Source: Clostridia bacterium (GTDB lineage: Bacteria > Bacillota > Clostridia > Christensenellales > UBA1242). Taken from it: DNA of 59,252 nucleotides. Under the pieces are notes generated by a model, which saw only the letters and a program-made list of their open reading frames with translations, made no database searches and had not been told where the DNA came from. This document shows, in pieces, positions 2,522 to 51,004 of this stretch. Made by a program: the position numbers and the translations under genes. Where the stretch lies: positions 1 through 59,252 of the forward strand of contig JAFZSF010000012.1 in the NCBI GenBank assembly GCA_017619495.1, written 5' to 3'. Each line of letters opens with the position of its first letter. The first letter of the stretch is position 1.

Positions 2522-2552
2522 AAAAACACCGTCAAATTGGCGGTGTTTTTTT
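2522..2552 (+). terminator. eno terminator, an intact copy of the hairpin that is split at 2994/4631
   Basis: AAAAACACCGtcaaattgGCGGTGTTTTTTT: a perfect stem plus T7. Confidence 0.8.
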
Positions 2553-2619
2553 GTCGGGGTATTGACTTTTAATTTAAGTAGCATATAATAAAACCAAATT
2601 AGAAAGGAGAAGAACAAAT

Positions 2620-2982
2620 ATGCCAAATAAGTTGGGAGAAATGACTTTTGAAGAAGTGGTTAGTGAATTACAGTTGGCGAACCCCAAAGCTAACATAACT
2701 GTCAACATGATGAGTGATGGACCGGTTGGTATTGTCAGTAACTGTTCGGCGGTTAAACTTGCTTTGCCACGCGATTTTTATGTCACACGCGCTGGCAGTA
2801 TATCTAATTACGGTAATACCGAAAGTGGTAATTACCTTTCAATCAATGTAGCAGTCAGAAATACGGAATTGAATCAAACTAAATTAAGTAAATTAAAATT
2901 CTTTGACAAAATGAAATGTAAATTATTTGCGCGTAAGGCACAAGTTTCCGTGGCCGAAGAACAACATAATCGCGAAATGTAA
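2620..2982 (+). CDS. hypothetical protein (120 aa)
   Basis: ORF with a TTGACT/TATAAT promoter (about 2563-2592) and an SD (gaaaggag). No family recognised. Confidence 0.55.
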   Translation: MPNKLGEMTFEEVVSELQLANPKANITVNMMSDGPVGIVSNCSAVKLALPRDFYVTRAGSISNYGNTESGNYLSINVAVRNTELNQTKLSKLKFFDKMKCKLFARKAQVSVAEEQHNREM

Positions 2983-3007
2983 TTAAAACAATCAAAAACA
3001 CCGTCAA

Positions 3008-3070
3008 TAGTTAGTGCATTTTGAAACTAGCGGAATAAAAAGAACTCTACTGTTTAGTTGGGTTCTTTTT
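3008..3070 (+). repeat. left-end repeat copy A (terminus plus subterminal hairpin)
   Basis: TAGTTAGTGCATTTTGAAACTAGCGGAAT followed by the hairpin AAAAAGAAC...GTTCTTTTT. It matches copies at 17636 and 43412, and in inverted form at 4588-4612 and 19046-19071. Confidence 0.8.
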
Positions 3071-3144
3071 ATTGTGGGGTAATATTGACTTTCGATAACT
3101 TGATATGTTATCATTACAGTCAAATCAAAAAGGAGAATCATAAA

Positions 3145-3615
3145 ATGTCAAACGAGAAAAAAGGTGAATTGATTACATCGGTCAAATCTGGTAATGGATT
3201 AAAAATATTATCTGATTTAGAAGCACGAGCCAAGATGGATAGTTTCGGATTTGATAATTTGTATTACTTAGATATTGATTACAAAACCCAGGCACAAGCT
3301 GATTATATGCAAGAAAAGTATGGTAATGAATATAGTTATGGAAAAAACGAGTATATGCAATATTGGGGTTGTGTTAATGCAGAAACTGATAATCAAAAAA
3401 CTGGAAGTTTTATAACCACTGATAAAATGTTATTTAAAAATCTTGTTTATCACTTCATTAATGACGAAAAAATGACTGTATCAGCGTGGACAAAAAAATT
3501 TGCCAATAGTTATAATCCACAAGAAGATTGGAGCAACCTTCTCGGATGTCTTGTTAAGGATATGGCAGAAAGAAGAAATAAAATAAACACGGAATGTGCT
3601 AGTACAAACAAGTAA
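3145..3615 (+). CDS. hypothetical protein (156 aa), cassette cargo
   Basis: ATG preceded by an SD (aaaaaggaga). The longer ORF from 3058 would run through the promoter-like TTGACT...TTATCAT. AT-rich by eye. No family recognised. Confidence 0.55.
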   Translation: MSNEKKGELITSVKSGNGLKILSDLEARAKMDSFGFDNLYYLDIDYKTQAQADYMQEKYGNEYSYGKNEYMQYWGCVNAETDNQKTGSFITTDKMLFKNLVYHFINDEKMTVSAWTKKFANSYNPQEDWSNLLGCLVKDMAERRNKINTECASTNK

Positions 3616-3660
3616 TTATATAATAAAATGACCCGCAGTAATGGGTCATTTTTATTTGAA

Positions 3661-4470
3661 TTAGTTGTTAATCGCATTGACCAAATCGCTATGGATTTTC
3701 CCGTTCGTTACTAACATGGTATCGACATTTTCGCGTGGATTGCCTGCTAGATTGGTAACTTTGCCGCCGGCTTCTTGCACCAACAGTTTGCCCGCCGCCG
3801 AACTTAAACCAATACTGGGTTTTACATTCAAAACACCGTCTGTTTTACCCGCAGCACACCAAGCCAATTCAATTGCTGAAGAAACAATTAAGCGTAAACC
3901 ACGCACTTTAGGTGCCAATTTACCTTCAACATTTAATACATCTTGAATGTGTTTTTCGCTATAATGTGAAGTTAAACAAAATGACACAATACTGTCCTTT
4001 AATTGGGTAGTGCTAGAAACATGAATTGGTTTTTCATTGCAAAACGCGCCTTGTCTTTTGATACATGTGTAAACATCGTTTTGACTGTAATCATAAATCA
4101 CACCTAAAATTGCTTCACCATTTTTACGCAAAGCAACAGTAGTTGAAAACAATGGAATGCCAGCGGCAAAGTTAATCGTGCCATCAATTGGGTCAATTAA
4201 CCATTCGTATTCACTGTCATTTTTAATTTGTCCACATTCTTCGGCTAAAATCGAATGGGTTGGAAACCATTGTTTAATAGCATCAACAATTTTCTTTTCC
4301 ATAAAAACATCAACATCGGTAACTATGTCGTTCAATTCTTTGTTCTGGATATTTTTGTTTTTAATTGTTTGTGATTCTTGATAAGCGTTTTTAATCAAAT
4401 CAGCTAATTTTGTAGTGAGTTTGAAATCAATTTCCATATTTAATGGTATCATGAAATGATTATTAATCAT
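3661..4470 (-). CDS. inositol monophosphatase (IMPase/SuhB/CysQ) family protein, cassette cargo
   Basis: Contains LAEECG and WLIDPIDGTINF motifs and a C-terminal ...SSAAGKLLVQEAGG motif. The start is ambiguous (M1, M7 or M12). Confidence 0.8.
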   Translation of the reverse strand: MINNHFMIPLNMEIDFKLTTKLADLIKNAYQESQTIKNKNIQNKELNDIVTDVDVFMEKKIVDAIKQWFPTHSILAEECGQIKNDSEYEWLIDPIDGTINFAAGIPLFSTTVALRKNGEAILGVIYDYSQNDVYTCIKRQGAFCNEKPIHVSSTTQLKDSIVSFCLTSHYSEKHIQDVLNVEGKLAPKVRGLRLIVSSAIELAWCAAGKTDGVLNVKPSIGLSSAAGKLLVQEAGGKVTNLAGNPRENVDTMLVTNGKIHSDLVNAINN

Positions 4471-4485
4471 AATAATTTTTAATTA

Positions 4486-4587
4486 TGGCAGTTAAACATG
4501 TGCTTGTCTATATACAAGTGGCGTCGCTTCGCTCCGCTAAAGACAAGCACAAAAAGTGTGTGCTTGTAAACAAGCGCACGCACTTTT
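4486..4587. repeat. right-end internal module with CTTGT/ACAAG hairpins, shared with 18822-18863
   Basis: TGGCAGTTAAACATGTGCTTGT ... GTGTGTGCTTGTAAACAAGCGCACGCACTTTT. The same sequence, minus a ~53-nt internal expansion, occurs at 18822-18863. In both places it lies directly 5' of a minus-strand cargo gene. Confidence 0.7.
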
Positions 4588-4612
4588 CGCAAGTTTCAAA
4601 AGTTAGTGACTA
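4588..4612 (-). repeat. right-end repeat copy E (inverted terminus)
   Basis: The reverse complement TAGTCACTAACTTTTGAAACTTGCG aligns with the left-end copies and best with copy D. Confidence 0.75.
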
Positions 4613-4750
4613 TTGGGCGGTGTTTTTTTTTGTTAGGTAGCGTTTGGGGAGCATGATAAACTGGGGTAGTGAAAAAGAAACTAATTAAAGTTATTGTTGA
4701 AATTGTGATTGCCGCGGTTTTGTTAATCGTGGTAGCGACACATAAATAGT

Positions 4751-5377
4751 TTATTGTACAAAATTGGTAAAAGTGGTTTTGACTTGTGCTGGGGCGGTAA
4801 TGCCTTGTTGTTTGCCCGCAGCGATACATTTTAACAGCCACGCCATGTTATTACCGAGATGTGTTAAAACTTGTAAGCCTTCCGTGTCAGCGGTAGGAGT
4901 GCCGTTGGCGTCACGGTAAATTTGGTTCCAATAACTGGACGCGACAACGGGCATTTGGTTAATTGTAAAGTATTTATTAATGATATCCATGCTAGCGGTA
5001 GTGCCGGCGCGGCGGGCGGTCAAGACTGCGGCGGCAGGTTTGTGACGGAAAAATTGGCTGCCCGCGTAAAACATGCGATCCATCGCGGATAATAAAGCGC
5101 CAGTGGGGTGGGCGTAGTAAACGGGACTGCCAAAAACGAAACCGTCCGCAGCTTTGACTTTTTCCAGCCAAGTATTGACGCAATCGTCATGGAAAACACA
5201 GGCGGGTGTGCCTTTTTTGCAGCCACCACAAGCAATACAGTCGTGGACGGCTTGGGAGCCGATGGATAAAATCCCGGTGTCAATGCCTTGTTGGTTGAGA
5301 GTTTGCGCTACGATGTTTAGGGCTTGTGCGGTGCAACCGTGGGGGTGTGTGCTACCATTAAATAAAATTACTTTCAT
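4751..5377 (-). CDS. flavodoxin-like fold NAD(P)H-dependent FMN reductase / iron-sulfur flavoprotein family protein
   Basis: MKVILFNGSTHPHG N-terminus, a Cys cluster (CIACGGC...C) and a GSPVYY motif, all typical of this family. Confidence 0.8.
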   Translation of the reverse strand: MKVILFNGSTHPHGCTAQALNIVAQTLNQQGIDTGILSIGSQAVHDCIACGGCKKGTPACVFHDDCVNTWLEKVKAADGFVFGSPVYYAHPTGALLSAMDRMFYAGSQFFRHKPAAAVLTARRAGTTASMDIINKYFTINQMPVVASSYWNQIYRDANGTPTADTEGLQVLTHLGNNMAWLLKCIAAGKQQGITAPAQVKTTFTNFVQ

Positions 5378-5466
5378 AATAATTCATATTAGGCAGTCGC
5401 GCCGAAATTGTCAATCGTGGGTAATTTATGCCTTGTAAAATTTTGTCGAAGTGCTATAATGCCAAT

Positions 5467-6471
5467 ATGAATTGGCAATCAATGTGGCAGACAATGGTAA
5501 ATTTCTTCCGTGGCAATGTATGGAATATTGTGACCTTTATTGCGGTTTTAGTACTGGGCGTGGTCGCAATTAAATTGTTACTAAATATTATGAAGCGTTT
5601 ATTTCGTCGGACCCATTTAGAACCGATTGCGGTGGGCTTCATTATGGCAATCATTAAGTTCTTGTTGTATTTGATGCTAGTGATTGTGTTACTGGAAATT
5701 TTGGGCATTGGTATTACTTGGATTGTAACGGCATTTAGTGCGGTTTTCTTAGCGGTAGGTTTGGCGTTGCAAAACAATATTGCGAACTTAGCTAACGGAA
5801 TTATTATCGTTTCCAGTGGTATGTTCAAAAAGGGCGACTATATCGCGGTGGACGGAGTGGAAGGTTCGATTGCGCAAATCAATTTTCTTTATATTACTTT
5901 AATGACACCAGATAATAAACGCATTACGATTCCGAATAACAAAATTTTGAATGATATTGTCACTAATTATGACAGCAATAACACGCGCCGTGTAAATTTT
6001 GAATTTGAAGTTGGTTACGCAAATGATGTGGAATTAGTAAAAAATACAGTCATTGAATGTATGAAAAGCAATGGTATGGTGCGTTTGGAACCAGCGCCAT
6101 TTTGCCGTATGAAGGCAATGGGAGATAATAACTTGGTGTTTGTGGCGCGTTGCTGGTGTGACCGTGAAGATTATTGGAATGTTTATTATGACATGATGGA
6201 AACGGTTTTCAATGAATTTAAACGCCGCGGTATTTCAATTGACTATAACCAAATTGAAGTACGCGAACGCAATGACAATCCCGCTAATCCAGTAACTGGT
6301 AATGGTCTACCAGTGCGCGTAGAAAAACAACGCAAAAACAAACACCATTTTGATTTGGAAAATAGCGATTTAACCGAATTATTTCCGATTAAGCGTAAGT
6401 CCAAAAAAACTACTAAGACAACAGAAACGGTAACAACAAGTACACCGAAAGCATCAAATGTCCAAAAGTAA
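5467..6471 (+). CDS. mechanosensitive ion channel (MscS family)
   Basis: N-terminal TM helices followed by GDYIAVDGVEGSIAQINFLYITLMTPDNKRITIPNNKI, the MscS beta-domain signature. The start is set at the ATG 6 nt after TGcTATAAT (5452-5460). Confidence 0.85.
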   Translation: MNWQSMWQTMVNFFRGNVWNIVTFIAVLVLGVVAIKLLLNIMKRLFRRTHLEPIAVGFIMAIIKFLLYLMLVIVLLEILGIGITWIVTAFSAVFLAVGLALQNNIANLANGIIIVSSGMFKKGDYIAVDGVEGSIAQINFLYITLMTPDNKRITIPNNKILNDIVTNYDSNNTRRVNFEFEVGYANDVELVKNTVIECMKSNGMVRLEPAPFCRMKAMGDNNLVFVARCWCDREDYWNVYYDMMETVFNEFKRRGISIDYNQIEVRERNDNPANPVTGNGLPVRVEKQRKNKHHFDLENSDLTELFPIKRKSKKTTKTTETVTTSTPKASNVQK

Positions 6472-6511
6472 TTGATTGGACGGAGTACGCATTTTTGGCT
6501 ATAATTAAAGT

Positions 6512-7240
6512 ATGAAGATTTTTAGCATACGACAAACTATTGGTGCGGGGGCGTGTGATCCGAGTGGTCGCTTGTCTTTGGTCGGAGCGTTGACTTTAAT
6601 TGAAGATGTGGTGACCGCCACCATGGCAAAGTTGAAAATTGATGGTTTTACCGTGCGTCGCCAGTATGGTGCTTTGATGGTATTTTCCAAAAATCATTTG
6701 AAATTTTTGCAAGATATTAATTGGCAAGATAAAGTTGTGGTGTCATGTTACTTTACAATGCAGTCTGCCGCTCGTATGAATGCTGATATTTGCGTGAAAA
6801 AAGGTGGCAAAATAGCTTTATATGCGCGGACGGAAATTTGCGCGGTTGATGCTACGACTGGTCGCATTCGTCGTATGAATTCAGTGGGAGTTGATAACCG
6901 TGTAAAACTGGTTAAGGCACAATATGATTTGCCATGGAACGCCATGGACGGTGAAGGTGAATTAAAGGAAACGGCAACAGTGCGTACGGGAAATATTGAC
7001 TACGCAGGACACACGAATAATGTAGAATATATTCGTATGTTGCTGGATACTTTTACATTGGAAGAATGGCGTGGTATGGCACCGCAAGAATTACAAGTGG
7101 CTTATTTGAGTCAATCCTTTTTAGGAGACCAATTAGCCATTTGGGCGGTGGATAATCAGTTAGACGCTAATACGCACGAACGCATATATACGATTAAAAA
7201 AGACCAACAAGCTGTGTTACGCTGTGCAGTGCGTTGGTAA
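6512..7240 (+). CDS. acyl-ACP thioesterase family protein (hot-dog fold)
   Basis: Size and layout fit two hot-dog repeats (CDPSGRLSLVGALTLIED...; DYAGHTNNVEYIRMLLD), as in acyl-ACP thioesterases. Confidence 0.65.
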   Translation: MKIFSIRQTIGAGACDPSGRLSLVGALTLIEDVVTATMAKLKIDGFTVRRQYGALMVFSKNHLKFLQDINWQDKVVVSCYFTMQSAARMNADICVKKGGKIALYARTEICAVDATTGRIRRMNSVGVDNRVKLVKAQYDLPWNAMDGEGELKETATVRTGNIDYAGHTNNVEYIRMLLDTFTLEEWRGMAPQELQVAYLSQSFLGDQLAIWAVDNQLDANTHERIYTIKKDQQAVLRCAVRW

Positions 7241-7255
7241 GGAGAAAAGTAACTG

Positions 7256-8329
7256 ATGAAAATTATTCACTGTGCCGACTTACACCTTGACAGTAAAATG
7301 GAAACCAACTTATCGCTGATTAAGGCGCATGAACGCAAAATTGAGATTTTGCATACTTTTGAACGCATGGTGGATTACGCTGCGGAACACGCAGTGAATG
7401 CAATTATCATTGCTGGTGATATGTTTGACACCTCACGCGTGATGAATTCGACCAAAAACCGTGTTTTGAATACGATTAAAAAATACCCACAGATTGATTT
7501 CTTGTATTTAAGTGGTAACCACGATGAAAGTAATTTCATCGCGATGTTAGACGAAGTACCCGCTAATTTGAAAATTTTCGGGGAATCATGGACTAGTTAT
7601 GATTATACTGGGGTGACAATTAGTGGCGTAGTTTTAAGTAGCAGTAACCGTAAGACAATCTATGATACCTTGCGTTTGTCGAATGACCATTTGAACATTG
7701 TGGTGATGCACGGACAAATCGGGCAATACGACGCTAAAGACCAAGCCGAAGTGATTAACTTGAACCAATTAAAACACAAACATATTGACTATTTAGCGTT
7801 GGGGCATATCCATAGTTATACCCAAGGAAAATTGGACCAACGCGGAACATATTGTTATGCCGGTTGTTTAGAGGGGCGTGGTTTTGATGAATGTGGGGCA
7901 AAGGGTTTTGTCTTATTAGATACGGCGGGTGGTGTTATTAAAAGTAAATTTATACCTTTTGCCGCCCGACAAATGATTGAGTTGCCCTTTGATATAACAC
8001 CGTATGCTGATTGGTTTGCGATTGAAGATCAAATCTTAGCGCGAACAAAAGTTTTTCCCGACAGGGATTTAATCCGAGTGGTTTTGCAAGGTAAATACAA
8101 AATGTCTATGGAAAAACATTTGGGTATGCTGGAACAAAAACTCGACCGTTTTTATTGTGTCAAAGTTAAAGATGATTCGGTGTTAGATGTGACCGAAGCC
8201 GATGTCGCGCACGATATTTCTTTGCGTGGTGAATTTGTGCGTCAGGTATTGCAGAGTGACTTATCAGCAGAAGCAAAAGAACAAACCATTTTAGTGGGTT
8301 TGCGGGCTTTAAGCGGGGAGGATTTATAA
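7256..8329 (+). CDS. metallophosphoesterase, SbcD/Mre11-like DNA repair exonuclease (YhaO type)
   Basis: HCADLHLD, GDMFD, GNHD and GH motifs. It is translationally coupled to the downstream Rad50-like ATPase. Confidence 0.85.
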   Translation: MKIIHCADLHLDSKMETNLSLIKAHERKIEILHTFERMVDYAAEHAVNAIIIAGDMFDTSRVMNSTKNRVLNTIKKYPQIDFLYLSGNHDESNFIAMLDEVPANLKIFGESWTSYDYTGVTISGVVLSSSNRKTIYDTLRLSNDHLNIVVMHGQIGQYDAKDQAEVINLNQLKHKHIDYLALGHIHSYTQGKLDQRGTYCYAGCLEGRGFDECGAKGFVLLDTAGGVIKSKFIPFAARQMIELPFDITPYADWFAIEDQILARTKVFPDRDLIRVVLQGKYKMSMEKHLGMLEQKLDRFYCVKVKDDSVLDVTEADVAHDISLRGEFVRQVLQSDLSAEAKEQTILVGLRALSGEDL

Positions 8330-8330
8330 G

Positions 8331-10610
8331 ATGCAACTGGTACAATGTCACATTGAAAATTTCGGTAAGTTGCATGATTTTAATTACACTTTTACCGACG
8401 GCTTAAATAATTTGCCAGCGGCGAATGGTTGGGGCAAAAGTACTTTGGCGACTTTTATTAAAGCTATGTTTTACGGGTTGCCGGTTACGACAAAAAAAGA
8501 CTTGGACGAAAACGAACGCAAAAAGTATCAGCCTTGGCAGGGGGGTAATTACGGGGGTAACTTAGTTTTTAATGTTCACGGCAAACAATACAAAATTGAG
8601 CGGTTTTTTGGTAAAAAACAGGCTGAGGATAGTTTTAATCTGCTTGAAGTGAGTACCGGTAAGAAAAGCCATGCTTTTACGGAAAATCTTGGGGTGGAGC
8701 TTTTTGGATTAGATGTGGCAGCGTTTGAACGCAGTTCTTATATTCCGCAGAAAACCTTGGATTCTAATTTTAACGAAAGTCTGGCACAAAAATTAAATCA
8801 TGTTTTGCAAGGGGCGTCCGAAGATGAAAATCTTGAAAACGCACTGGCGCGGTTGGATAAAAAACGCGTCACTTTATCGAACAATAAAAAGACGGGTCAA
8901 ATCCAGGTTCTGGCGACACAACTTGATGCAGTTGCCACGCGTATGCATGAATTGGCAGGTGGCAGTCAAGCGATTAATGATTTACAGCGACAAATTGCGA
9001 TACAGGACGAAAAGTGTCGTGTTTTACGGGAGCAACAAACACAAATTCGACAACAGATTAAAGATTATGCCAAGTGGCAAGAAAAACAAGCCAATCAAGC
9101 ATTATATGCTGAATTAAACCGTAAAGTTATGGCAACGCAAACCGCGCTTAAAAACCGGCAGGCGGTTTTGCGGGGACACCAGACCAGTGTGACGGAAATT
9201 GACAGTTACATTGCTTTGGAAAAGACGGTTACTGCCAAAGCAAATGCGCTACAAATGAATCAGGGGGATTATGTGCGCGCGCGTAAACAAGCTTTGGAAA
9301 CTTATTTTAAGGGAAAAGTGCCGACGGCGGAAAAGGTTAAATCCATCTATGATGATGTGTTGCAGTATAATGCACTGCGCGCACAAACGGACAATTGGGT
9401 AGTGCGTAAGACACAAAAGCGTGGTCAGGCGCGTGGTTGGCGGTTAGGCCTGCTAGCATTAGCCTTGGTTGCGGTATTGAGCGGAGTGGCGCTTTGGACG
9501 GTACAACTCGGCGTGGCGGTCGCTTTGATCGTAGCTGGGGCGGGTGCGTGTTTAGGGGCGCTGTATTTATCCTTGGTTAATATGATTAACACTAAGACCG
9601 CGCTGCAGCCAAGTATTGATTACGAACGCTTAAAGGAAAACCAAACTTTAATGTTAAAGTTGCAGCAAAGCATCAGTGAATTTTTAAGTCCATACGAAAG
9701 CACAAATGATTATTTAACCGCCATTAATCATGTGCATAATAACTGGCGTGAATACGAAAATTTGCAAGCCCAATCAGTTTGGCAAGCACAACAAGCGGGG
9801 GCGTGGTCAGCTACAATTATGGCGGACCAGACCAAGTTACAAAACTATTTAGCGCAGTTCCAGTTAGACACCACCAACACGGCGTCAGAACAATTGGCAA
9901 CCTTAAAACAAGTTGTCATTGATTTGGCGAATTTGCAGACACAATTGACGGAGGACCAGCGCGCACTGGAACAATTTAAAACAGCGAAAAATTTTGATCT
10001 AAATGAAGCGGTGGTGACGGTGGATATTAATGAACTACAACGCACAGAGAATGATTTACAAACACAAATCGATGCCTATAATGCGGATAAGGCGCAGTTG
10101 ATTGCCAAAATTGATAAGATTCAAAATGAAATGTCCGAACTTGATGATTGTGAAGCTAGAAAGATTAATTTACAAACCGAAAAGCAAACTTTGGAAGCAT
10201 CATTAGCGGCGGTGCAATCCGCAATGCAATTTTTGCAAATGGCGAATGAGAGTTTGGCAACTAAATTTTTGGCTCCGATGAAAGCAGGTGTAAAAAAATA
10301 TTTACAGTTATTGACCGACCAGAATTTTGACAATCTGAATTTAGATACGGATTTCAAAATCAAATTTGAAGAATACGGCAAGTTGCGCGCGGTTGAACAT
10401 TACAGCCGTGGTTATCAGAACGCTATTGATTTAAGTATGCGCTTTGCGTTAATTGACGCGCTATATCAACAAGAAAAGCCGTTCATTGTCTTAGACGACC
10501 CGTTCATTAATTTGGACGAAGCGAAGGTGGCAAAAGCTAAATCATTTTTGCAGACTTTGGCTAAGGATTACCAACTGATTTATTTTACTTGCCACGCGTC
10601 TCGATGCTGA
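8331..10610 (+). CDS. SbcC/Rad50-like AAA ATPase (YhaN type) with a central hydrophobic hairpin
   Basis: Walker A (NGWGKST), long coiled-coil-like Q/E/K-rich arms and a C-terminal Walker B (FIVLDDPF). Two hydrophobic helices lie mid-protein. Confidence 0.85.
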   Translation: MQLVQCHIENFGKLHDFNYTFTDGLNNLPAANGWGKSTLATFIKAMFYGLPVTTKKDLDENERKKYQPWQGGNYGGNLVFNVHGKQYKIERFFGKKQAEDSFNLLEVSTGKKSHAFTENLGVELFGLDVAAFERSSYIPQKTLDSNFNESLAQKLNHVLQGASEDENLENALARLDKKRVTLSNNKKTGQIQVLATQLDAVATRMHELAGGSQAINDLQRQIAIQDEKCRVLREQQTQIRQQIKDYAKWQEKQANQALYAELNRKVMATQTALKNRQAVLRGHQTSVTEIDSYIALEKTVTAKANALQMNQGDYVRARKQALETYFKGKVPTAEKVKSIYDDVLQYNALRAQTDNWVVRKTQKRGQARGWRLGLLALALVAVLSGVALWTVQLGVAVALIVAGAGACLGALYLSLVNMINTKTALQPSIDYERLKENQTLMLKLQQSISEFLSPYESTNDYLTAINHVHNNWREYENLQAQSVWQAQQAGAWSATIMADQTKLQNYLAQFQLDTTNTASEQLATLKQVVIDLANLQTQLTEDQRALEQFKTAKNFDLNEAVVTVDINELQRTENDLQTQIDAYNADKAQLIAKIDKIQNEMSELDDCEARKINLQTEKQTLEASLAAVQSAMQFLQMANESLATKFLAPMKAGVKKYLQLLTDQNFDNLNLDTDFKIKFEEYGKLRAVEHYSRGYQNAIDLSMRFALIDALYQQEKPFIVLDDPFINLDEAKVAKAKSFLQTLAKDYQLIYFTCHASRC

Positions 10611-10685
10611 GAATTATGGTGCGATTTACATTTCAAATTTTATTAAACTATGTTATACTGTAACGAAACAAAAGGAGGCATTAAC

Positions 10686-11537
10686 ATGAAAAAGAAGTTG
10701 TGGTTGGTCGTAGCGTCTTTCGTGTTGTTATCCGTAATGGCTTATGCGGTCGTCGGGTGGACTTTCTTTTGGGGTAAACGGGAGCCTGCTGATGCGGTTC
10801 AAAATAGCACTGTTACCAAAGCTTTTTACACGGTTGATTTTGTAACTCATGGAACCACTACTATTAATTCACAAGCAGTGCCCCATGGACAGAAGGCAAC
10901 GAAACCAGTTGACCCGACTTTTGAAGGTTGTATTTTTATGGGGTGGTATTTAGATGCCAATTATAGTGGTGAGCCATTTGATTTTGATAAGCCGATTACC
11001 AGTGATATGACCTTGTATGCCTGTTGGAATGCGATTATTTATACGGTAACTTTTGACAGTTGTGGTGGCACTGCGGTCGCAGCAATCCCCGTGATGGAAG
11101 GGAAAAAAATTACTGAACCAACGACCGAGTGGACAGGATATGAATTTAGGGGTTGGTATACTGACGAAGCGTATAGTACCCCGTTTGATTTCGACCAAAA
11201 GATTACGCAAAATATTACTCTTTATGCCAAATGGTCGATTCGGTTTACATTGGCTCATGATGGGGAATCTTATGGGGTTACGGAATATGATGGTACCGCG
11301 TCAGCAATTACGATTCCCGCCATCTATCGTGGTAAACCGGTCACATATATTGGCAAGTGGGTTTTTGAAAATTGTCAAACTTTAACTTCGGTTGTGATTG
11401 AGGAAGGTGTTTTGCGCCTTGATCGCTGTGTGTTTTATGGCTGCAGTAATTTAATGACGATAATTATTCCGGTCAGTGTGATCGAAATTGATGAAGATGC
11501 TTTCCGTAATTGTCCAGCTGAAATTATCCGTAAATAA
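10686..11537 (+). CDS. surface protein with Listeria/Bacteroides-type repeats and a BspA-type LRR
   Basis: SD (aaaggagg), a signal-anchor helix, two repeats of the YTV.F...G......v..G.....P..P...GY.F.GWY type, and a C-terminal FENCQTLTSVVI / FYGCSNL LRR. Confidence 0.75.
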   Translation: MKKKLWLVVASFVLLSVMAYAVVGWTFFWGKREPADAVQNSTVTKAFYTVDFVTHGTTTINSQAVPHGQKATKPVDPTFEGCIFMGWYLDANYSGEPFDFDKPITSDMTLYACWNAIIYTVTFDSCGGTAVAAIPVMEGKKITEPTTEWTGYEFRGWYTDEAYSTPFDFDQKITQNITLYAKWSIRFTLAHDGESYGVTEYDGTASAITIPAIYRGKPVTYIGKWVFENCQTLTSVVIEEGVLRLDRCVFYGCSNLMTIIIPVSVIEIDEDAFRNCPAEIIRK

Positions 11538-11616
11538 TTAACCGACCCGCATAAAATACAAAACAATTATTCTTTACAAAAACGAAGTATTATTATATAA
11601 TGTGTTTTGTATTGAT

Positions 11617-11691
11617 AGGGGTATCGCCAAGCGGTAAGGCACGAGACTTTGACTCTCGCATTCGTAGGTTCAAATCCTGCTACCCCTGCCA
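11617..11691 (+). tRNA. tRNA-Gln (UUG)
   Basis: 75-nt cloverleaf folded by hand: acceptor AGGGGTA/TACCCCT, anticodon loop CTTTGAC, GTTCAAATCC T-loop, encoded CCA. Confidence 0.9.
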
Positions 11692-11852
11692 AATCAATCC
11701 ACATACACAATTATCCCTTGTTTGCCCAAATCATTGATGGTGATTTTTTTTGGACGTGGGCTTGGGATTGATGTAGTGCGCGGGGGTGGTAATAATCACA
11801 ATCGATAGTTCTTCTTGCAAAATAAAATTCGCATTGATATAATTAAGTATAT

Positions 11853-13454
11853 ATGAAAAAGAAGATAACAATTGTATCACTTATCATTTGTTCAGTTTTA
11901 CTTGTAATATGTTGCGTTAGTGTGTTTTTAATTAGCAAAGATAAACAAAACAGCACGACAACTTTAGAAACACTTAATATGAATTATTTTAAAAATCTTC
12001 AATTGGATATAGAAGATGTTAAATCATTGGGAATTAGTAATGAAAATTTAGAAAACGAAAAACAATTATCCACCGCAAGTATTCGCACGGCTGAAAGTAA
12101 TTCAAAAAATAGTCATTCAAAATATTTCTTATACGCAACGAAAGAAAATTCTAATGGTGAAATTAGATTTGAAAAAGTTAAATTCAAAAAACATAGTTCG
12201 ATTCAAGAAGATGTTTATGATGACAAAAATCAAAAAATTGATTATCAAATCACTCAAGATAAACTTAATACTCAAATAAATAAATTATATATCACCGAAA
12301 AATATACGTTTATTCAGTTCATTGCACTCGTTGCGGAAAGTGGTACATATTCTTATCAAGATGAGAATAAACAGGTGCATGAAGAATATGTAACTTTAAG
12401 ACCTAATGATTTAACATATAACAATGGAGTTTCCGATTTTGATACGATGGACTATTTCAGCAATCATTTTACTTATAGTTTCGTAATATCAAACGAAACG
12501 AATCATATTTATAAAATTACGGATTTTACCATTAAAAAAATTAAAGATGGTTTAGTTAGTGATGAAAATGGCTTGATTTACCAAATTTTAATTGATGAAG
12601 ACAATAATCTTCAATTTAACAGCCTTTTTAATAATCCCAATATAACTGTTTTAGATTGTTTTCAAGATACATATGGAAACAACTACATTAAAAATACTAC
12701 TGTTAATGAAATTGATGCAATCACGAATACGGTTTTTTATACCACAGGGTATTATCGAACTGTAGAAAATGTTGTTATAAAAATTGACGGAAATATTGGG
12801 TGGGACTCAAACACTCAAATCAATCGTATTGATATCTCCGCAGTTAAAAAAGTCGGTAAAAACTTACAATTAATGGATATTTTAGCTAATGAAAAGTTCG
12901 ATTTCGAAAATCAAAGAATTGCTGGCGAATACTATGATAGTTGGAATAAATTATCAAAAATCGAAAATGGAAAACTTTACTTGTTTGGGGCATCTGTTTC
13001 GTCTAAAGTATTATTTACGATTTATGATCTTGAGTTAAATTGCCAAAAGTCATATTACATTGTTAGTAATTACATATATCCAATATCAAATGATACAATC
13101 ATTCATTTTAGTAATGAAACAAACAAAGTTGGAAATTTATCTTATTTAATAATCAATTTTGAAGATGTTTCTAATTGGGATATGTCATATTCGGATGTCG
13201 ATTATTATTTAAGTAGTGAATCATTAGGAAATGAAGTTCAACTGCTTCTTGCAAACTGCTTATGGAATTATAAGTTTTTGACCAATGAAGAGTGTCAATG
13301 GAATAATTTCAGTATTGACACCATCGCCGCCAGAAAGGAATATACCGTCACTCAAGCCGATGATGGTACCGTGAAACTTGAATTAATTGATGATTTTACA
13401 TCGAACGGAAATATAATCATATCTTTCCAACCAATAAAAATGAGAAATGCTTAG
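11853..13454 (+). CDS. hypothetical secreted or membrane-anchored protein (533 aa), AT-rich
   Basis: Long ORF with an N-terminal signal-anchor (IVSLIICSVLLVICCVSVFLI). Codon composition is visibly more AT-rich than the neighbours. No family recognised. Confidence 0.6.
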   Translation: MKKKITIVSLIICSVLLVICCVSVFLISKDKQNSTTTLETLNMNYFKNLQLDIEDVKSLGISNENLENEKQLSTASIRTAESNSKNSHSKYFLYATKENSNGEIRFEKVKFKKHSSIQEDVYDDKNQKIDYQITQDKLNTQINKLYITEKYTFIQFIALVAESGTYSYQDENKQVHEEYVTLRPNDLTYNNGVSDFDTMDYFSNHFTYSFVISNETNHIYKITDFTIKKIKDGLVSDENGLIYQILIDEDNNLQFNSLFNNPNITVLDCFQDTYGNNYIKNTTVNEIDAITNTVFYTTGYYRTVENVVIKIDGNIGWDSNTQINRIDISAVKKVGKNLQLMDILANEKFDFENQRIAGEYYDSWNKLSKIENGKLYLFGASVSSKVLFTIYDLELNCQKSYYIVSNYIYPISNDTIIHFSNETNKVGNLSYLIINFEDVSNWDMSYSDVDYYLSSESLGNEVQLLLANCLWNYKFLTNEECQWNNFSIDTIAARKEYTVTQADDGTVKLELIDDFTSNGNIIISFQPIKMRNA

Positions 13455-13472
13455 GTTGTGTATTTGCAGTTT

Positions 13473-13484
13473 CTACCCCTGCCA
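13473..13484 (+). repeat. 12-nt direct repeat of the tRNA-Gln 3' end (CTACCCCTGCCA)
   Basis: Exact copy of 11680-11691, located just after the stop of the AT-rich ORF. Confidence 0.6.
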
Positions 13485-13847
13485 CCTGAACTGCCGGTTC
13501 TGATGACCGGCTTTTTTTATTAAATAGCAAGACATTTACCGGTTGTAATAAATAAAAAAGGGCACCGTTGCAGGCGCCTTTTTTGCTTGGTAGTTCCGAG
13601 GTAGAATTAACCTTAATTTTTATACAAGATATAGTAATTAGCTATAAAAAGATGTCTGTATATTGATTTAGTCATAGTTTTTGTCATAGTATTTTGGGTA
13701 TTTTTCTGTAAAAAACTTTATTATTGTAAAATATCGTGCAATGATACTTGATTTGGTAGTGGGAAATTTTGTCGAAGAAAAGATTTTTATAATTAGTGAT
13801 GTATGATACAATGTTGTATCAAATAATAATAATCAGGAGGATATGCA

Positions 13848-16800
13848 ATGAAAAATCTTCACATTTCCTTAAAAAATTTTTTAATGTTGTTGTGTCTGCT
13901 AGCGATGTTTCCGTTTGCAATACTGTTAACGGCATGTGATGGTGGGGGCTCAGGAACGGTGACACCGGACAGAACAATTATGGATGTGAGCTGCGCGATT
14001 CGTGATAGCAGTGTTAATTACACGTTTGTGAATGATTATGAAATTCGGATTGCACATGATGCGAATATTTACAGTCTCATTGGTAATCAGGATTTTATTG
14101 TGACAGTTTATTATTCGGATGGCACTAACGAGGTTGTTAATTTGGGTTATACCGTTAATATTGTCGACCATACTAGCGAAGGTATGTATTACGATTACAC
14201 AATTGAAGTTAGTTATTCGGGTATTGATTATACAATTTGTTCCATCAATGTAATTGTTGATGCAGAGATGTTGCCAATGTTTACAAACCTTTCTGCGATT
14301 GGTGATATTTATTCGGGTTATAATTTTACCGAAGAATTACGTTATACTGGTAATGAATACGATGTTTCCGAAATGATTGTTACCGGTGATGGTACAACCT
14401 TGGCAGAGTTAGTTGCGCAAAACAAAGTAACTTTGGATACTTCAAATTACGGTTGTGCTTTACCAACTTGTACCTACCAAACAACAAATCCAAATGTATA
14501 TTGTGGTAATGATCAATATGATAATTATTCATTTATCATCCGGGCGAACCGTGGTTATCAATGGGAAATTGAAGGACAAGCGGTTGATTCGTTAACCGTA
14601 AACTGGCAAATTAAACGTCAAATTATTGATACACCGGTATTAACTTCGGCAACTGAATTTACTTATCAACACCGTGCTGAAACAGTCAATGGCCAAACAA
14701 CTTATGTTGGTGTACCACAAAGTTTAACCTTTAATTATGGTAATGGGGCACTGTATGTTACTCCCGCGGATCAACAAACCGATCATGGAATGTACCAAAC
14801 TGTGTTGAGAGTGAAAGATGAATGCGATGAATTCTACACCTTTATGATTAATGGTGAAGAACGTGATTCAGTGTGGTTTGATTGGTCAATTACACCAATG
14901 CAATTAACACGACCGACCATTGCGCAAAATCATTATACTTATACTGGCAGCGAAATTAAACCAGCCGTAATTAGTGATTATTTGGATTTGTTTGACATTA
15001 CTTATCCAACTTGGTGTGTTGCAGCATCATCGGAAAATTCTTGGTACCAAATTGGTATTAGTTTGAAACCTGAATATTATTATTCGTACAATTATAATTT
15101 GGGTTATGATGAAAGTAATCCTGTTTATAACGTTAATCTAAATTACTACATTGATCCAGCATCATTCCCGACCGCAATCGCAACAGACCTTGATAATATC
15201 AACTTTGTTTTGGAAAAGGATTTGAATTACGACTATGGTACTTATGCGTCATCAATGACTTATGAAGAATATGTGAATGCTTTATATAAAGGTGATTTCG
15301 TTAATTCGGTTGTTGAGATGGCAGAATTCCAAGACCAATATGACAGTGAACGTTGGAGTAGATTTGAATTTGAATTACCTGATACTATGCCTGATGGTTT
15401 AACCGCCGACAGTTATCTTGATGCGAATACAACTACTGGTTATCCGGTTAAAGTTATGTACTGGTATGACCAAACAAATTATCAACCCTATACCTTTACG
15501 GCAATTTTGAAAATAAAACCAAAAGAAATGCCAATTAATACGACCTGGCAGCGTTGGATTTCTACCACAGGATACAGTGGATATATCAACACAGCAGACA
15601 GCGAAATCGTTTATGATCCGGAGGCAACATATGGTTATTACTTAAATAATTTCCATGAAATTGCAGTAAATTATACGATTTATTATGGTACAACGGAAAA
15701 CAATATCAATACACCTGTTAATGCTATGTCAAATGCAGGTTATTATCGTATCGTGGCAACTTTAGTGGCACCCAACAACAATAACACAAATAACTTCTTG
15801 ATTTATGATGAAGATGATAATAGTAAAACTCCAATTGCATCTTTAACATATCCAAACATTATACACATTAGCCCAAAACCGGTTTCATTCTGGGCTTACA
15901 GTGGTACAGTAAATTATGTTAATACTTGTGAAAATTATTACGTAGAGGGCGTGGCACGAAGCATTGATAAGCCAACCTTACATGACACTTTGGTATTACC
16001 TTATGTTGATGATCAAAATGACCAAGTGGAACGAGTAACATACTATCGTGCTAATCAAAATGCGGCTTGGACGGTAGCTGAAAACACGATTGATGTCGGT
16101 TATTATAAAACAGTGTTTACTTGGCATTTGAATGACCAATACAATGATGGTAACTATCAATTGGTATCGTTTGATGCCGATACTAATGCTAATGTCGACG
16201 GTGGTTTTGCAACGGTTGAATGGTATATTTACCCCAATACTTATGCATTACAAACCACAAACCCCAATGCAGATGGTTACATTGGTTGGTTGAATAATGA
16301 TGAATTTAGCGTGTATTATAATAATAACTACGATTGGTTTGCTGAATTGCCAGTTACAAAACCAGATGGTATCGGTATTGACTATATGTATGATAATGCT
16401 CATTACAATAGTGAAACCGGTGTGTGGCAAAGTTCTGGCAGTCAAAATTCGTCTAACCCGTCTGAAACGGGCGATTACTTGATGTATGCGAACTTCTATG
16501 TTAAAAACATCGCAGGTTGGGATCAGGTGACGGTAACAGTAGATGGTGAAGCGCGTATAATTAGTGAAGGCCATAAAATTATTTATTCTACAAATTCAAA
16601 ACATTTAGCCATTGTGGAGCAAACACCATCAAATATCGTCTTAAACAACAATGTGACATTTAACGTAGGTGGTTACAAATATTTCAGCTTTACCACGGGT
16701 GATGCTACGGAATATATGATTATTACCAATGAATCTAATGCAGTATTTAATCTTCGTTTAGCTAACGGAACGGACTATACATATTTACAAGGTGCAAGAT

Positions 16801-17384
16801 TAAACAATAGTCAATCTTATTACCTTTTACACGAATTGGAACCGAATACGAATTATGTTTTAAGGATTGGTCCAAATTCTAATTCTACTGAAGGCACACG
16901 TAGTTTCATGTTGATGGTATATCCGGAGCAATTAGATTTTGAATATTCAAATGCAGTTACGGTTTATGATTTTACTAATGGTACGACTACTAGTGGTGGT
17001 TTTGTAATTTCCGCCCATGATGTTAATGTTGGTGAAACGGTAACAGTTCCGGCAACAGTTTATGCCGGTGTACCAACCAATCCGGATGAACCGATGAATT
17101 TAACATATTCAGCACATGATGTTATTGCTATTACAGCTAATGGTTTTGAAAATAACACCATGACACGCATTGATTTACCGTTTATCAAAAACATCGGTGA
17201 CCACGCGTTCAAAAATTGTACCAATTTGCGTGAAATCCATTTTGCTTATTATAATGGTGATTGGAAGAATATAGTCTTTGGTAAAAATGCATTTGAGGGT
17301 TGTACGAATTTAACTTTGTACACTGGTAATGGTGGAATTTATCACGTTTCTGAAGATGGTTCAATTACCGAAATTAACGCCTAA
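13848..17384 (+). CDS. large surface lipoprotein with a C-terminal BspA-type LRR (1178 aa)
   Basis: SD (caggagga), a signal peptide with lipobox (AILLTAC), a Y/N/T-rich beta-type body and C-terminal DHAFKNCTNL / NAFEGCTNL LRR units. Confidence 0.75.
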   Translation: MKNLHISLKNFLMLLCLLAMFPFAILLTACDGGGSGTVTPDRTIMDVSCAIRDSSVNYTFVNDYEIRIAHDANIYSLIGNQDFIVTVYYSDGTNEVVNLGYTVNIVDHTSEGMYYDYTIEVSYSGIDYTICSINVIVDAEMLPMFTNLSAIGDIYSGYNFTEELRYTGNEYDVSEMIVTGDGTTLAELVAQNKVTLDTSNYGCALPTCTYQTTNPNVYCGNDQYDNYSFIIRANRGYQWEIEGQAVDSLTVNWQIKRQIIDTPVLTSATEFTYQHRAETVNGQTTYVGVPQSLTFNYGNGALYVTPADQQTDHGMYQTVLRVKDECDEFYTFMINGEERDSVWFDWSITPMQLTRPTIAQNHYTYTGSEIKPAVISDYLDLFDITYPTWCVAASSENSWYQIGISLKPEYYYSYNYNLGYDESNPVYNVNLNYYIDPASFPTAIATDLDNINFVLEKDLNYDYGTYASSMTYEEYVNALYKGDFVNSVVEMAEFQDQYDSERWSRFEFELPDTMPDGLTADSYLDANTTTGYPVKVMYWYDQTNYQPYTFTAILKIKPKEMPINTTWQRWISTTGYSGYINTADSEIVYDPEATYGYYLNNFHEIAVNYTIYYGTTENNINTPVNAMSNAGYYRIVATLVAPNNNNTNNFLIYDEDDNSKTPIASLTYPNIIHISPKPVSFWAYSGTVNYVNTCENYYVEGVARSIDKPTLHDTLVLPYVDDQNDQVERVTYYRANQNAAWTVAENTIDVGYYKTVFTWHLNDQYNDGNYQLVSFDADTNANVDGGFATVEWYIYPNTYALQTTNPNADGYIGWLNNDEFSVYYNNNYDWFAELPVTKPDGIGIDYMYDNAHYNSETGVWQSSGSQNSSNPSETGDYLMYANFYVKNIAGWDQVTVTVDGEARIISEGHKIIYSTNSKHLAIVEQTPSNIVLNNNVTFNVGGYKYFSFTTGDATEYMIITNESNAVFNLRLANGTDYTYLQGARLNNSQSYYLLHELEPNTNYVLRIGPNSNSTEGTRSFMLMVYPEQLDFEYSNAVTVYDFTNGTTTSGGFVISAHDVNVGETVTVPATVYAGVPTNPDEPMNLTYSAHDVIAITANGFENNTMTRIDLPFIKNIGDHAFKNCTNLREIHFAYYNGDWKNIVFGKNAFEGCTNLTLYTGNGGIYHVSEDGSITEINA

Positions 17385-17525: not shown

Positions 17526-17635
17526 AATACTTTTGTATTTTAACATAACAATGCGCGCTTTGCAAGCATAAAAAAATTAACTGCCCGTGCAATGTTAATT
17601 GGCCGTTTATAAAAGCAGACAAAAAAGCCCAAACA

Positions 17636-17690
17636 TAGTCAATGCATTTTGAAACTAGCGGAAAAACTCTCAAGTTATGAAAGTTTTTCC
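17636..17690 (+). repeat. left-end repeat copy B (terminus plus subterminal hairpin)
   Basis: TAGTCAATGCATTTTGAAACTAGCGG followed by the hairpin GGAAAAACT...AGTTTTTCC. Confidence 0.8.
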
Positions 17691-17693
17691 GTT

Positions 17694-18773: not shown

Positions 18774-18821
18774 CAGAAAAATTATAAACTTTTTCAAAAC
18801 AAAAAACAATAAATAATAATT

Positions 18822-18863
18822 TGGCAGTTAAACGTGTGCTTGTAAACAAGCGACGCACTTTTT
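18822..18863. repeat. right-end internal module (copy 2)
   Basis: TGGCAGTTAAACGTGTGCTTGTAAACAAGCGACGCACTTTTT. It matches 4486-4507 plus 4561-4587 and contains the palindrome GCTTGTaaACAAGC. Confidence 0.7.
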
Positions 18864-19045
18864 CTTTTCTTCGTTTGTTAGCGTAAACGGATATTCTTTG
18901 TTGTCAAGGTTAAAGTGAATATCTAACAATTACAAAATTTATACTAATCACGGTAACCTATGACAACGGCAGAAGTATCCGTTTAACAGTTTTAACAAGG
19001 GCAAAAGAAAACACCCTAACCAATTTGGTTAGGGTGTTGATTATT

Positions 19046-19071
19046 CTGCTAGTTTCAAAAGTCAGTGACTA
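19046..19071 (-). repeat. right-end repeat copy D (inverted terminus)
   Basis: The reverse complement is TAGTCACTGACTTTTGAAACTAGCAG. Going inward it is followed by the hairpin CACCCTAACCaaattGGTTAGGGTG (19007-19037). Confidence 0.8.
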
Positions 19072-19143
19072 TGATTGGGCTTTTGCTGATTAAAATTTTA
19101 TGCAGTGGTGGTCGTAGTGGACTGGTTGGCGTGAGCTAAATAT

Positions 19144-43400: not shown

Positions 43401-43411
43401 AAAGACCGCCA

Positions 43412-43468
43412 TAGTTGCAGCATTTTGAAACTAGCGGAATAAGAACTCAAAATGCGAGTTCTTTTTTT
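43412..43468 (+). repeat. left-end repeat copy C (solo) plus a terminator hairpin
   Basis: TAGTTGCAGCATTTTGAAACTAGCGGAAT followed by AAGAACTCaaaatgcGAGTTCTTTTTTT, starting 12 nt after the dinB stop. Confidence 0.8.
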
Positions 43469-43549
43469 GAACAAAGATTACAGTAATGTAATATTCAGTT
43501 AGTTTCATTTTATTTGTGGATATGTTAAAGTATACGCAAGGGGTAAAAT

Positions 43550-44121: not shown

Positions 44122-44196
44122 TGGAGGCACGGGCCAGAATCGAACTGGCGCATAACGGTTTTGCAGACCATCGCTTTTCCACTTAGCAACCGTGCC
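44122..44196 (-). tRNA. tRNA-Cys (GCA)
   Basis: The minus strand reads GGCACGGTTGCTAAGTGGAAAAGCGATGGTCTGCAAAACCGT...CAGTTCGATTCTGG...TCCA, with a U73 discriminator. Confidence 0.9.
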
Positions 44197-50974: not shown

Positions 50975-51004
50975 TGCTGTTAATTGGTTATAATAAATTT
51001 GAAC

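Follow-up and report, generated by a model that had tools for sequence, protein, structure and literature searches.

A gene cassette seated in a split terminator hairpin of an uncultured Clostridia bacterium, and a large serine recombinase found inside the same ends in larger relatives

Integration by a large serine recombinase (LSR) joins attP (P-core-P') to attB (B-core-B'), the half-sites of each forming imperfect inverted repeats around a 2-bp crossover. Enzymes of this class include TnpX and TndX, the transposon-type LSRs of Tn4451 and Tn5397, as well as CcrAB, which move the staphylococcal cassette chromosome (SCC) elements with their variable cargo, among them ccr-less pseudo-SCC that depend on enzyme supplied in trans. 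Here we describe a two-gene segment of 1,607 bp, cassette 1, which splits a terminator hairpin at positions 3007-4613 of a 59-kb stretch of DNA from a Clostridia bacterium (59,252 nucleotides, contig JAFZSF010000012.1; this whole stretch is called the window, and coordinates refer to it unless another locus is named by an L-number). We put the probability that cassette 1 is a mobile cassette inserted in a terminator loop at about 0.9, and our best reading is that it is non-autonomous and belongs with a family of site-specific integrative elements of uncultured gut and rumen Clostridia.

Multi-targeting LSRs integrate into many chromosomal sites that have a loose AT-rich motif around a 2-bp core; the class is recognized by closely related LSRs integrated at more than 3 unrelated loci and often has DUF4368, and the paper describing it mentions neither terminators nor palindromes (Durrant et al. 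2022, PMC10083194). The elements described here resemble those of multi-targeting LSRs and of TnpX and TndX in that their ends would correspond to two attP half-sites, but their targets are dyad-symmetric intrinsic terminators entered at the loop, and unlike the multi-targeting class they comprise a large population of recombinase-less cassettes and an LSR without DUF4368. Whereas SCC elements occupy one fixed attB in rlmH and form arrays, dozens of dispersed terminator sites are used here by much smaller cassettes (0.7-3 kb) whose ends are near-perfect inverted repeats.

There are likenesses to other classes of element, too. Mobile insertion cassettes (MICs, an ISfinder category; e.g. MIC231 of the Bacillus cereus group) and MITEs (miniature transposable elements with inverted repeats) look similar, since they also combine short inverted ends and passenger genes with the lack of a transposase and an enzyme acting in trans, but MICs are DDE-derived and make target duplications of several bp, whereas our junctions share at most 2 bp and the association is with a serine recombinase. 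The insertion sequences (ISs) IS1397 and ISKpn1 of the IS3 family and ISPpu9 and others of the IS1111 type (IS110 family) insert in repetitive extragenic palindromic (REP) sequences (PMC12288879). They likewise enter the loop or centre of extragenic palindromes and avoid gene disruption; they are, however, autonomous, use DDE or DEDD enzymes, have no such passenger-only derivatives and target REPs rather than functional terminators. Integron cassettes, comparable in ecological role, also form a pool of small, mostly single-gene, exchanged units whose recombinase is encoded elsewhere, but they depend on attC, the tyrosine recombinase IntI and attI arrays, while the present cassettes are dispersed and have their own promoters and terminators; we rejected an integron assignment on the two inverted ends in place of one attC, the lack of arrays and the lack of an integrase in the window. 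Morons are similar in being self-contained promoter-gene-terminator units, insulated from outside transcription by a terminator near the element end, yet they have no ends of their own, whereas each end of the present cassettes bears a terminator that would also make up for the one the host lost through the insertion. The family differs from all these systems in its terminator-loop target at many dispersed sites, its self-insulating cassettes and its near-perfect site symmetry, and a literature search of incomplete coverage found no account of terminator-loop cassettes or terminator-targeting LSRs.

Anatomy of cassette 1 and its split hairpin

On the plus strand, cassette 1 is preceded by an A-run and half-stem, AAAAACACCGTCA (2994-3006), and followed by the other half-stem with a T-run, TGGGCGGTGTTTTTTTTT (4614-4631), which we propose to be the B arm of attL and the B' arm of attR. 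Rejoined, the halves fold at -15.6 kcal/mol (z -5.7), in agreement with the original prediction, made from the sequence of the window, that they belong to one interrupted terminator. The same prediction had pointed to a nearly identical intact hairpin after eno, and this bidirectional terminator (2522-2552, plus strand) indeed folds at -16.0 kcal/mol (z -4.7), with AT central in its loop; it is a paralogous model for the unoccupied site.

The cassette starts with the left end ATAGTTAGTGCATTTTGAAACTAGCGGAATAAA (3007-3039, plus strand), the proposed P' arm, whose first AT is the proposed crossover dinucleotide, and finishes with the right end ATAGTCACTAACTTTTGAAACTTGCGAAAAGTG (4613-4581, minus strand), the proposed P arm. 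The outermost ~33 nt are inverted with respect to each other, reading ATAGTTAGTGCATTTTGAAACTAGCGGAA on the left and ATAGTCACTAACTTTTGAAACTTGCGAAA on the minus strand at the right; as predicted, these termini are imperfect inverted repeats (repeat I9, 31 nt, 77% complementary), and they follow the pattern ATAGT-N7-TTTTGAAACTWGC. Inside each terminus lies the hairpin that had been seen there, followed by a T-run and facing inward. The left one, module T-c (3040-3073, plus strand; 3034-3073 folds at -16.1 kcal/mol, z -5.5), is common to L007, L009, L020, L022, L025, L027 and L054, and the right one, module T-b (4550-4587, minus strand; 4590-4546 folds at -18.2 kcal/mol, z -2.7), to L011, L019, L020, L025-L028, L032, L038-L040, L042 and L043. 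By their placement, T-c would stop transcripts arriving from the upstream gene orf120 and T-b those from the side of the FMN reductase gene.

Between these terminators, the cassette holds the two genes that had been recognized before, namely an open reading frame (ORF) of 156 codons (3145-3615, plus strand) and a gene for an inositol-monophosphatase-family (IMPase) phosphatase (3661-4470, minus strand; Pfam Inositol_P, E 7e-51). The 156-aa protein is lineage-restricted: it has no match in Pfam or PADLOC and five relatives among 1.84 billion representatives, and its low-confidence structure model (pLDDT 62) gave no significant fold match. A promoter-like site, TTGACT-18-TATCAT with TG (3085-3114, plus strand), lies upstream of the 156-aa ORF, and a promoter module with an upstream hairpin (4475-4549, minus strand; TAGACA-17-CATAAT at 4510-4482) is shared with other members of the family, being homologous to the stretch between recombinase gene and cargo in L009 and L054. 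The convergent genes are separated by a predicted bidirectional terminator (3625-3652). The higher AT content that had been ascribed to the cargo is borne out by a GC fraction of 0.339 for cassette 1, where eno has 0.431, the FMN reductase gene 0.491 and the window as a whole 0.397. Since the same arrangement recurs in an independent assembly (ERZ28653682 scaffold_1668), cassette 1 is not an assembly artefact or chimera.

Between the full and the half copy of the hairpin lies an accessory unit (2553-2993, plus strand) with a promoter (2562-2589) and orf120 (2620-2982), which encodes 120 aa without a Pfam match. The region upstream of orf120 is homologous to the left promoter module of cassette 1 (score 66 versus 22.8 +/- 4.1 for shuffles). 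The unit is probably another cassette of this hotspot, one that has decayed and no longer possesses end motifs.

Paired ends, empty sites and exchanged cargo

The window contains five occurrences of the core TTTTGAAACTWGC where chance would give 0.59, a count reached in none of 100 shuffles, and, as the original prediction stated, the termini recur at a second locus with other flanks (cassette 2, 17635/19072), which again lies in a split hairpin. When the pattern ATAGT-N7-TTTTGAAACTWGCRRAA was scanned for exactly in other DNA, species-representative genomes, in each case metagenome-assembled genomes (MAGs), yielded 19 loci, and metagenomes another 19 contigs, which judged by their names and sources seem to be mostly from rumen or herbivore gut. 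All but one of the former bear the label Clostridia, Eubacteriales or Clostridiales, with 'Candidatus Onthoplasma' (Christensenellales) among them, and the exception is called only 'uncultured bacterium'. A profile search gave 57 non-redundant ends spread over roughly 45 related loci of gut and rumen Clostridia MAGs and metagenomes. Scans of IMG/VR returned zero matches to the strict end motif and one chance match to a looser one; these elements are not phage-borne.

The ends are conserved over ~30 nt, with the inner consensus ATAGTCACTGACTTTTGAAACTAGCGGAATAAT, and their surroundings are as regular as their sequence. An A-run ends 6-12 nt outside the junction at 48 of the 57 ends, as compared with 8% of random positions, and the spacer between A-run and junction has a GC fraction of 0.59. 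On the inner side, a T-run lies 20-90 nt from the junction at 55 of 58 ends, and most such stretches fold as a stable hairpin; they are drawn from a few recurring modules, which are followed inward by a promoter and then by variable cargo. Importantly, the ends occur mostly in inverted pairs, the arrangement that the mobile-cassette proposal called for. Eighteen such pairs enclose 0.7-7.7 kb, and their rejoined flanks fold at -8 kcal/mol or below in 10 of 18 cases compared with 12.7% of mismatched left/right controls; the flanks of L054 (-14.8 kcal/mol at its corrected junction) and L042 (-14.9 kcal/mol) also rejoin as hairpins, and about 11 of the 18 pairs do so overall.

The cargo is diverse, always of lower GC than the surroundings and never a transposase. 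It includes the IMPase alone, histidine phosphatases, an ABC transporter with an AbrB-like protein, a radical-SAM and ATP-grasp pair, a GIY-YIG-like protein, Nudix proteins, restriction-modification genes and many proteins of unknown function.

Mobility is indicated by the comparison of sites. The interval between eno and the FMN reductase gene is known in three states, the window state being orf120 plus cassette 1. In L049, whose eno is 96% identical to that of the window in amino acids and 85% in nucleotides, eno is followed by a single intact hairpin (-19 kcal/mol) and the convergent FMN reductase gene, and by nothing more. In L020 (eno 97% identical in amino acids), a different 1.2-kb cassette, carrying an XRE-type helix-turn-helix protein (assigned by eye) and a 209-aa protein, sits in the loop of the same eno hairpin, and the homology of the locus with the window ends exactly at 2535, the end of the left half-stem, and restarts at 4460 inside the shared right-end module. 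Neither locus has orf120.

Conversely, the same cargo is found at different sites. L016 matches window 3103-4587 at 97.7% nucleotide identity over 1487 nt, with an IMPase 97.4% identical in amino acids, and its right flank is AAAAAAGCACAGCA, adjoining hsp20 and tRNA genes, while its right-end module is of the type present in cassette 2. In L028 and L043 the IMPase gene forms a single-gene cassette by itself within the hairpin AAAAAAGACACCAGGTA, and in L037 the left end of cassette 1 stands behind AAAAAAACACCAGC; the same IMPase cargo is known with at least three different flanks. These paired ends and occupied, empty and exchanged sites uphold the original proposal of a non-autonomous cassette that targets terminator loops.

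They also speak against two other readings that had been raised with it. According to one, the motif is a conserved regulatory element near terminators or in 3' untranslated regions (3' UTRs), and the cassettes are ordinary genes between two such elements, the loci differing by gene loss. This agrees with the hairpin and T-run that follow every end, and with the position of every end directly downstream of a stop codon or half-terminator, where it would be transcribed as part of 3' UTRs; the part of it that stands is that each end carries a terminator. It does not explain split hairpins whose halves rejoin, the empty site of L049, the lower GC of the cargo, or different cargo at one site together with 97.7%-identical cargo at different sites, nor does any Rfam family match: searches of the window and five loci gave only tRNA, rRNA and signal recognition particle RNA, and the cassettes had no match. 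A purely regulatory 3'-UTR motif is therefore excluded by the empty site and the exchange of cargo and sites, and we regard this reading as extremely unlikely even in its wider form.

In the other reading, the cassette is an invertible segment that serves as a phase-variation switch, turned over by a recombinase at its inverted ends. Inverted sites, a serine recombinase tied to the family and a palindromic AT core that permits inversion would all fit, but the cargo units are self-contained, with promoters and with terminators on both sides, and because of this an inversion would change nothing obvious. Moreover, one orientation only is seen in two independent assemblies, and the polymorphism of cargo and site points to insertion and excision. 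As a primary function inversion is thus very unlikely, though it is possible as a side reaction of a serine recombinase at a palindromic core.

Attempts to find strain-level empty sites for cassettes 2 and 3 (the latter being the copy at 43411 described below) by identical-protein look-ups returned only contigs broken at the cassette border. Short contigs from other samples (L002, L003, L050, L052 and L053) encode proteins identical to those of the window and end at or just outside a cassette border, which fits assembly breaks induced by repeats or by strain heterogeneity.

A large serine recombinase inside the same ends

The original prediction suggested asking whether any copy carries a recombinase, and larger relatives with the same ends do encode an LSR. 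In L009, an end with the flank AAAAAACACACT| is followed by the same terminator module, ~190 nt more, and then, about 250 nt inside the end, the gene for a 500-aa LSR (Resolvase, Recombinase and Zn_ribbon_recom domains) that reads outward to the end; beyond its start codon come noncoding DNA with structure, the shared promoter module, and genes for an AbrB/MazE-like protein and for type I restriction-modification. The site of the element adjoins an SDR gene. L054 holds a complete element of 7.7 kb (about 4083-11763) whose LSR is 86% identical to that of L009 and whose called genes are hsdR, a 211-aa gene without a Pfam match, hsdM, a mazE-like gene and the LSR, with no second recombinase. Its left end is of a second type (AAGGGTTATAAACTTTGACACTAGCAAAAAAAAGG plus hairpin) and its right end of the first type, and it sits between a 416-aa gene and def in the split hairpin AAAAATCACAGC|...|AGGCTGTGATTTTTT, the one that rejoins at the corrected junction. 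At two further sites, L067 and L059, LSRs each 73% identical to that of L009 are followed, 50-110 nt past the stop codon, by a variant end and then a half-stem and A-run, TTAGTCTATGCTGTTTGAAACTAGCAG in L067 and AGGGCTATAAATTTAGAAACTAGTT in L059. The distance from LSR to an end is 50-260 nt in all four loci, which represent four different sites and of which only L009 and L054 are closely related.

The recombinase-less cassettes bear traces of this enzyme. The region upstream of the LSR is kept in all four LSR lineages, and the noncoding right side of cassettes, as in L016 and in the piece of cassette 2 at 18815-18916, is a collinear homologue of this region and of the cargo promoter of L009 and L054; because of this collinearity, cassette 2 looks like an L009-type element minus its recombinase gene. 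Furthermore, in one MAG the cassette end of L014 is identical to the L009 element end at 29 of 29 positions, including a CACTCAA variant unseen elsewhere. Window ORFs of at least 150 aa showed neither a transposase nor a recombinase domain, in keeping with the original prediction, and since cassette 1 has no LSR of its own while relatives with the same ends encode one, we take it to be non-autonomous.

The LSR belongs to a large family (3,455 matches at E < 1e-40) that is no more than a distant relative of characterised integrases. In a PDB sequence search the catalytic domain of the TP901-1 integrase matched best and TnpX more weakly, and integrases in the phage collection were at most 38% identical.

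Two noncoding structures accompany the LSR gene. A conserved stretch of ~180 nt between its stop codon and the end-proximal terminator (L054 11510-11690; L009 1690-1870) forms a long hairpin of -53 kcal/mol (z -5.5), which could be an RNA or a protein-binding site. Upstream of the start codon lies a conserved nested palindrome, GTCTTTCG...AAACGAAAA...TTGTCAAGGGT...ACCCTTGACAA...TTTTCGTTT...CGAAAGAC (L009 3380-3500; L054 9850-9995; L059 and L067 9815-10000), remnants of which can still be recognized in recombinase-less cassettes; this palindrome may serve to regulate the recombinase. At L059/L060 (1-16000), the 73%-identical LSR lies inside a defence-type island. This island has a type I restriction-modification system with several hsdS genes and fragments that adjoin a tyrosine integrase in a shufflon-like way. 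Immediately upstream of the LSR is a REP_ORF2-G2P replication-initiator-like gene, and the island also holds one gene of the IMPase family, one that is MGMT-like, and another integrase accompanied by a methylase and helicase pair.

We consider it more probable than not that the associated LSR is the mover, acting in trans on recombinase-less derivatives and using bidirectional terminators as attB. According to this model, autonomous members would carry the ~500-aa LSR just inside one end, and the cassettes would be deletion derivatives that lost the LSR gene while keeping both ends, the inward terminators, the LSR-upstream region, a divergent cargo promoter and a small cargo. The LSR supplied in trans would synapse the joined ends of an excised circle, which serve as attP (CAAAA-N10-AT-N10-TTTTG; the P and P' arms measure about 28 bp), with the duplex DNA of a bidirectional intrinsic terminator as a degenerate attB that consists of an A-run, a GC-rich arm of 6-11 bp, AT in the loop, the complementary arm and a T-run, and strands would be exchanged at the central AT. 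The predicted circle junction is ...GCAAGTTTCAAAAGTTAGTGACT-AT-AGTTAGTGCATTTTGAAACTAGC... and the predicted restored site AAAAACACCGTCA-AT-TGGGCGGTGTTTTT.

From the chemistry of LSRs follow inverted flanks (B and B'), inverted ends (P' and P) and a junction direct repeat of only 2 bp, all as observed. The junction dinucleotide is AT at both junctions in nearly all copies and AA at both in L054; because AT is palindromic, it could as well belong to the inverted repeat or represent a TA duplication. Rejoined targets read A-run-N6-11-AT-N6-11-T-run, with the A and T tracts a few bp nearer the centre than in attP. In its geometry a bidirectional terminator thus mimics attP, which would account for the choice of terminators as landing sites; selection against insertions that disrupt genes may contribute, but alone it cannot explain insertion at the loop centre. 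We further propose that each end carries its own terminator because insertion destroys that of the host: the end terminators would restore termination for both neighbours and insulate the cargo, which would be expressed from promoters of the cassette. A functionally similar insulating terminator is described for Tn916 (PMC11658703).

Two other movers have to be weighed against the LSR. The first is a hairpin-loop-preferring transposase that would act in trans, as IS1397 does with REP loops, on a MIC or MITE-like derivative of a DDE IS (e.g. IS630/Tc1-like, with TA or AT duplication). Two-part terminal inverted repeats, with terminal ATAGT and internal TTTTGAAACTAGCGG, junctions that share only a 2-bp palindromic repeat and cassettes devoid of any enzyme would suit such an origin. 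However, no DDE transposase was found in the window, in any cargo or beside the ends in about 70 loci, and for want of a cognate transposase with the same ends in these loci we rejected the assignment to DDE-derived MICs and MITEs. In addition, the sole recombinase repeatedly found just inside the ends is the LSR, the cassettes keep the LSR-upstream region, and the end is conserved to about 30 bp, the length of an attP half-site. A DDE origin is hence unlikely. A possible likeness of the ends to the inverted repeats of IS26/IS6 (GGCACTGTTGCAAAGTTAGCG) was given no weight.

The second is a host enzyme, such as a Xer-like tyrosine recombinase, that would move the units by analogy with pdif modules, leaving the LSR as a passenger or with another role, for instance in resolution or inversion. 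For this speak the absence of the LSR from the window, the resemblance of units bounded by inverted sites to pdif modules, and the far ends of two LSR elements that were not located; the end consensus lacks, however, the 11-6-11 dyad of Xer sites, the position and orientation of the LSR beside an end are fixed in four lineages, and the LSR is the only recombinase of the complete L054 element. We judge this quite unlikely. Xer/dif-like or Hin-type sites had been tried and rejected, there being no convincing dyad in the end consensus, and so had a pdif/Xer module, as ATAGTCACTGACTTTTGAAACTAGCGGAATAAT is without the XerC/XerD 11-6-11 architecture. A group IIC intron, a terminator-targeting retroelement that enters just behind the stem, was dismissed as well: there was no Rfam intron match in the window and five loci and no reverse transcriptase, and the cassettes sit within the loop instead.

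Several points weigh against movement by the LSR into terminator loops. The empty site of L049 comes from a related species (about 85% nucleotide identity in eno), not from a sister strain, and its hairpin loop differs and is without the central AT. Mobility was read from assembled sequences, and neither an excision circle nor a rejoined site is among the read evidence. In seven of the 18 pairs the flanks do not match, being two unrelated half-terminators; we infer that cassettes at different sites recombined to give these pairs. In a few ends AA, GT or TT stands instead of AT, a palindromic AT core would give no control of orientation, and an LSR attB does not usually show such variation of flank sequence and spacing (6-11 nt). 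As for the enzyme, DUF4368, common in the described multi-targeting clade, was not detected in it, 10 kb of sequence did not reveal the far ends of the L059 and L067 elements, and with no recombinase among the window ORFs of at least 150 aa an LSR in this genome is presumed.

Further copies in the window and implications for gut Clostridia

Cassette 2 (17635-19072; 1,438 bp, GC 0.306) occupies, together with its half-stems (17621-17634 and 19073-19085), the segment 17621-19085, and its split hairpin AAAAAAGCCCAAAC|...|GATTGGGCTTTTG rejoins at -13.3 kcal/mol. Its ends (left 17635-17667, plus strand; right 19072-19040, minus strand) form repeat I1, which is 86% complementary over 44 nt, and its terminators lie at 17660-17695 and 19010-19038. 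The cargo is one 371-aa ORF (17694-18809, minus strand) without a Pfam match, a homologue of which, 54% identical, is found in the cassette of L021, located in another split hairpin. The family of this protein is small (11 clusters) and lineage-specific. Among the structures matched by its AlphaFold model (pLDDT 83), the Pseudomonas syringae effectors 4rsw and 4rsx and chain 9dk3_B of the LxmKY dehydratase rank highest, with modest scores even for these top matches (Foldseek E about 4e-4, TM 0.3-0.5); among lower-ranked, non-significant matches were class III lanthipeptide synthetases and OspF/SpvC phosphothreonine lyases. The promoter module of cassette 2 (18823-18865) resembles a deletion variant of that of cassette 1 (4475-4587): the first half of the T-b hairpin is fused directly to the ACAAGCAC...TTTAACTGCC promoter part, as if the intervening piece had been lost via recombination between repeated ACAAGCAC words.

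A third, one-ended copy (43398-44068, plus strand), which was absent from the original prediction, has a half-stem (43398-43410) directly after the dinB stop codon and an end at 43411-43443; farther in come first a terminator and a promoter region and then the cargo, a Nudix gene (43550-44068, plus strand). Neither a right end nor a terminator half was found between 44069 and the tRNA gene at 44125-44196. The Nudix protein matches the PADLOC candidate family PDC-S07 (E 1e-13), the sole match among ten cargo proteins run.

The host has a small, low-GC (0.40) genome and is a Clostridia bacterium related to Christensenellales. Other features of the window are the start of a 16S rRNA gene, eight tRNA genes, sporulation genes (yunB), a T4SS-pilin-like protein and several BspA-type leucine-rich-repeat surface proteins, one of 1,178 aa (coordinates, listed jointly: 58931-59252, 10650-17384, 34332-35354 and 50984-51781).

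Taken further, the model would mean that an LSR lineage evolved to use the dyad geometry of terminators (A-tract, arm, AT, arm, T-tract) as a degenerate attB and services a dispersed, integron-like pool of recombinase-less cassettes; with the replacement terminators and promoter that each of them brings, any terminator of the genome would be a neutral landing pad. We offer this extension tentatively, as a possibility falling slightly short of even odds. If the model holds, the specificities known for serine integrases would gain a target rule that is structural and palindrome-based, and the serine recombinase class a population of recombinase-less cassettes analogous to MITEs and MICs. An enzyme with a short, predictable class of targets and compact ends of ~30 bp might also be of interest for genome engineering. 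The cargo constitutes a pool of lineage-specific genes that are evidently exchanged, and the small genomes of uncultured gut Clostridia would in this way gain and swap single accessory genes without breaking genes or the termination of operons.

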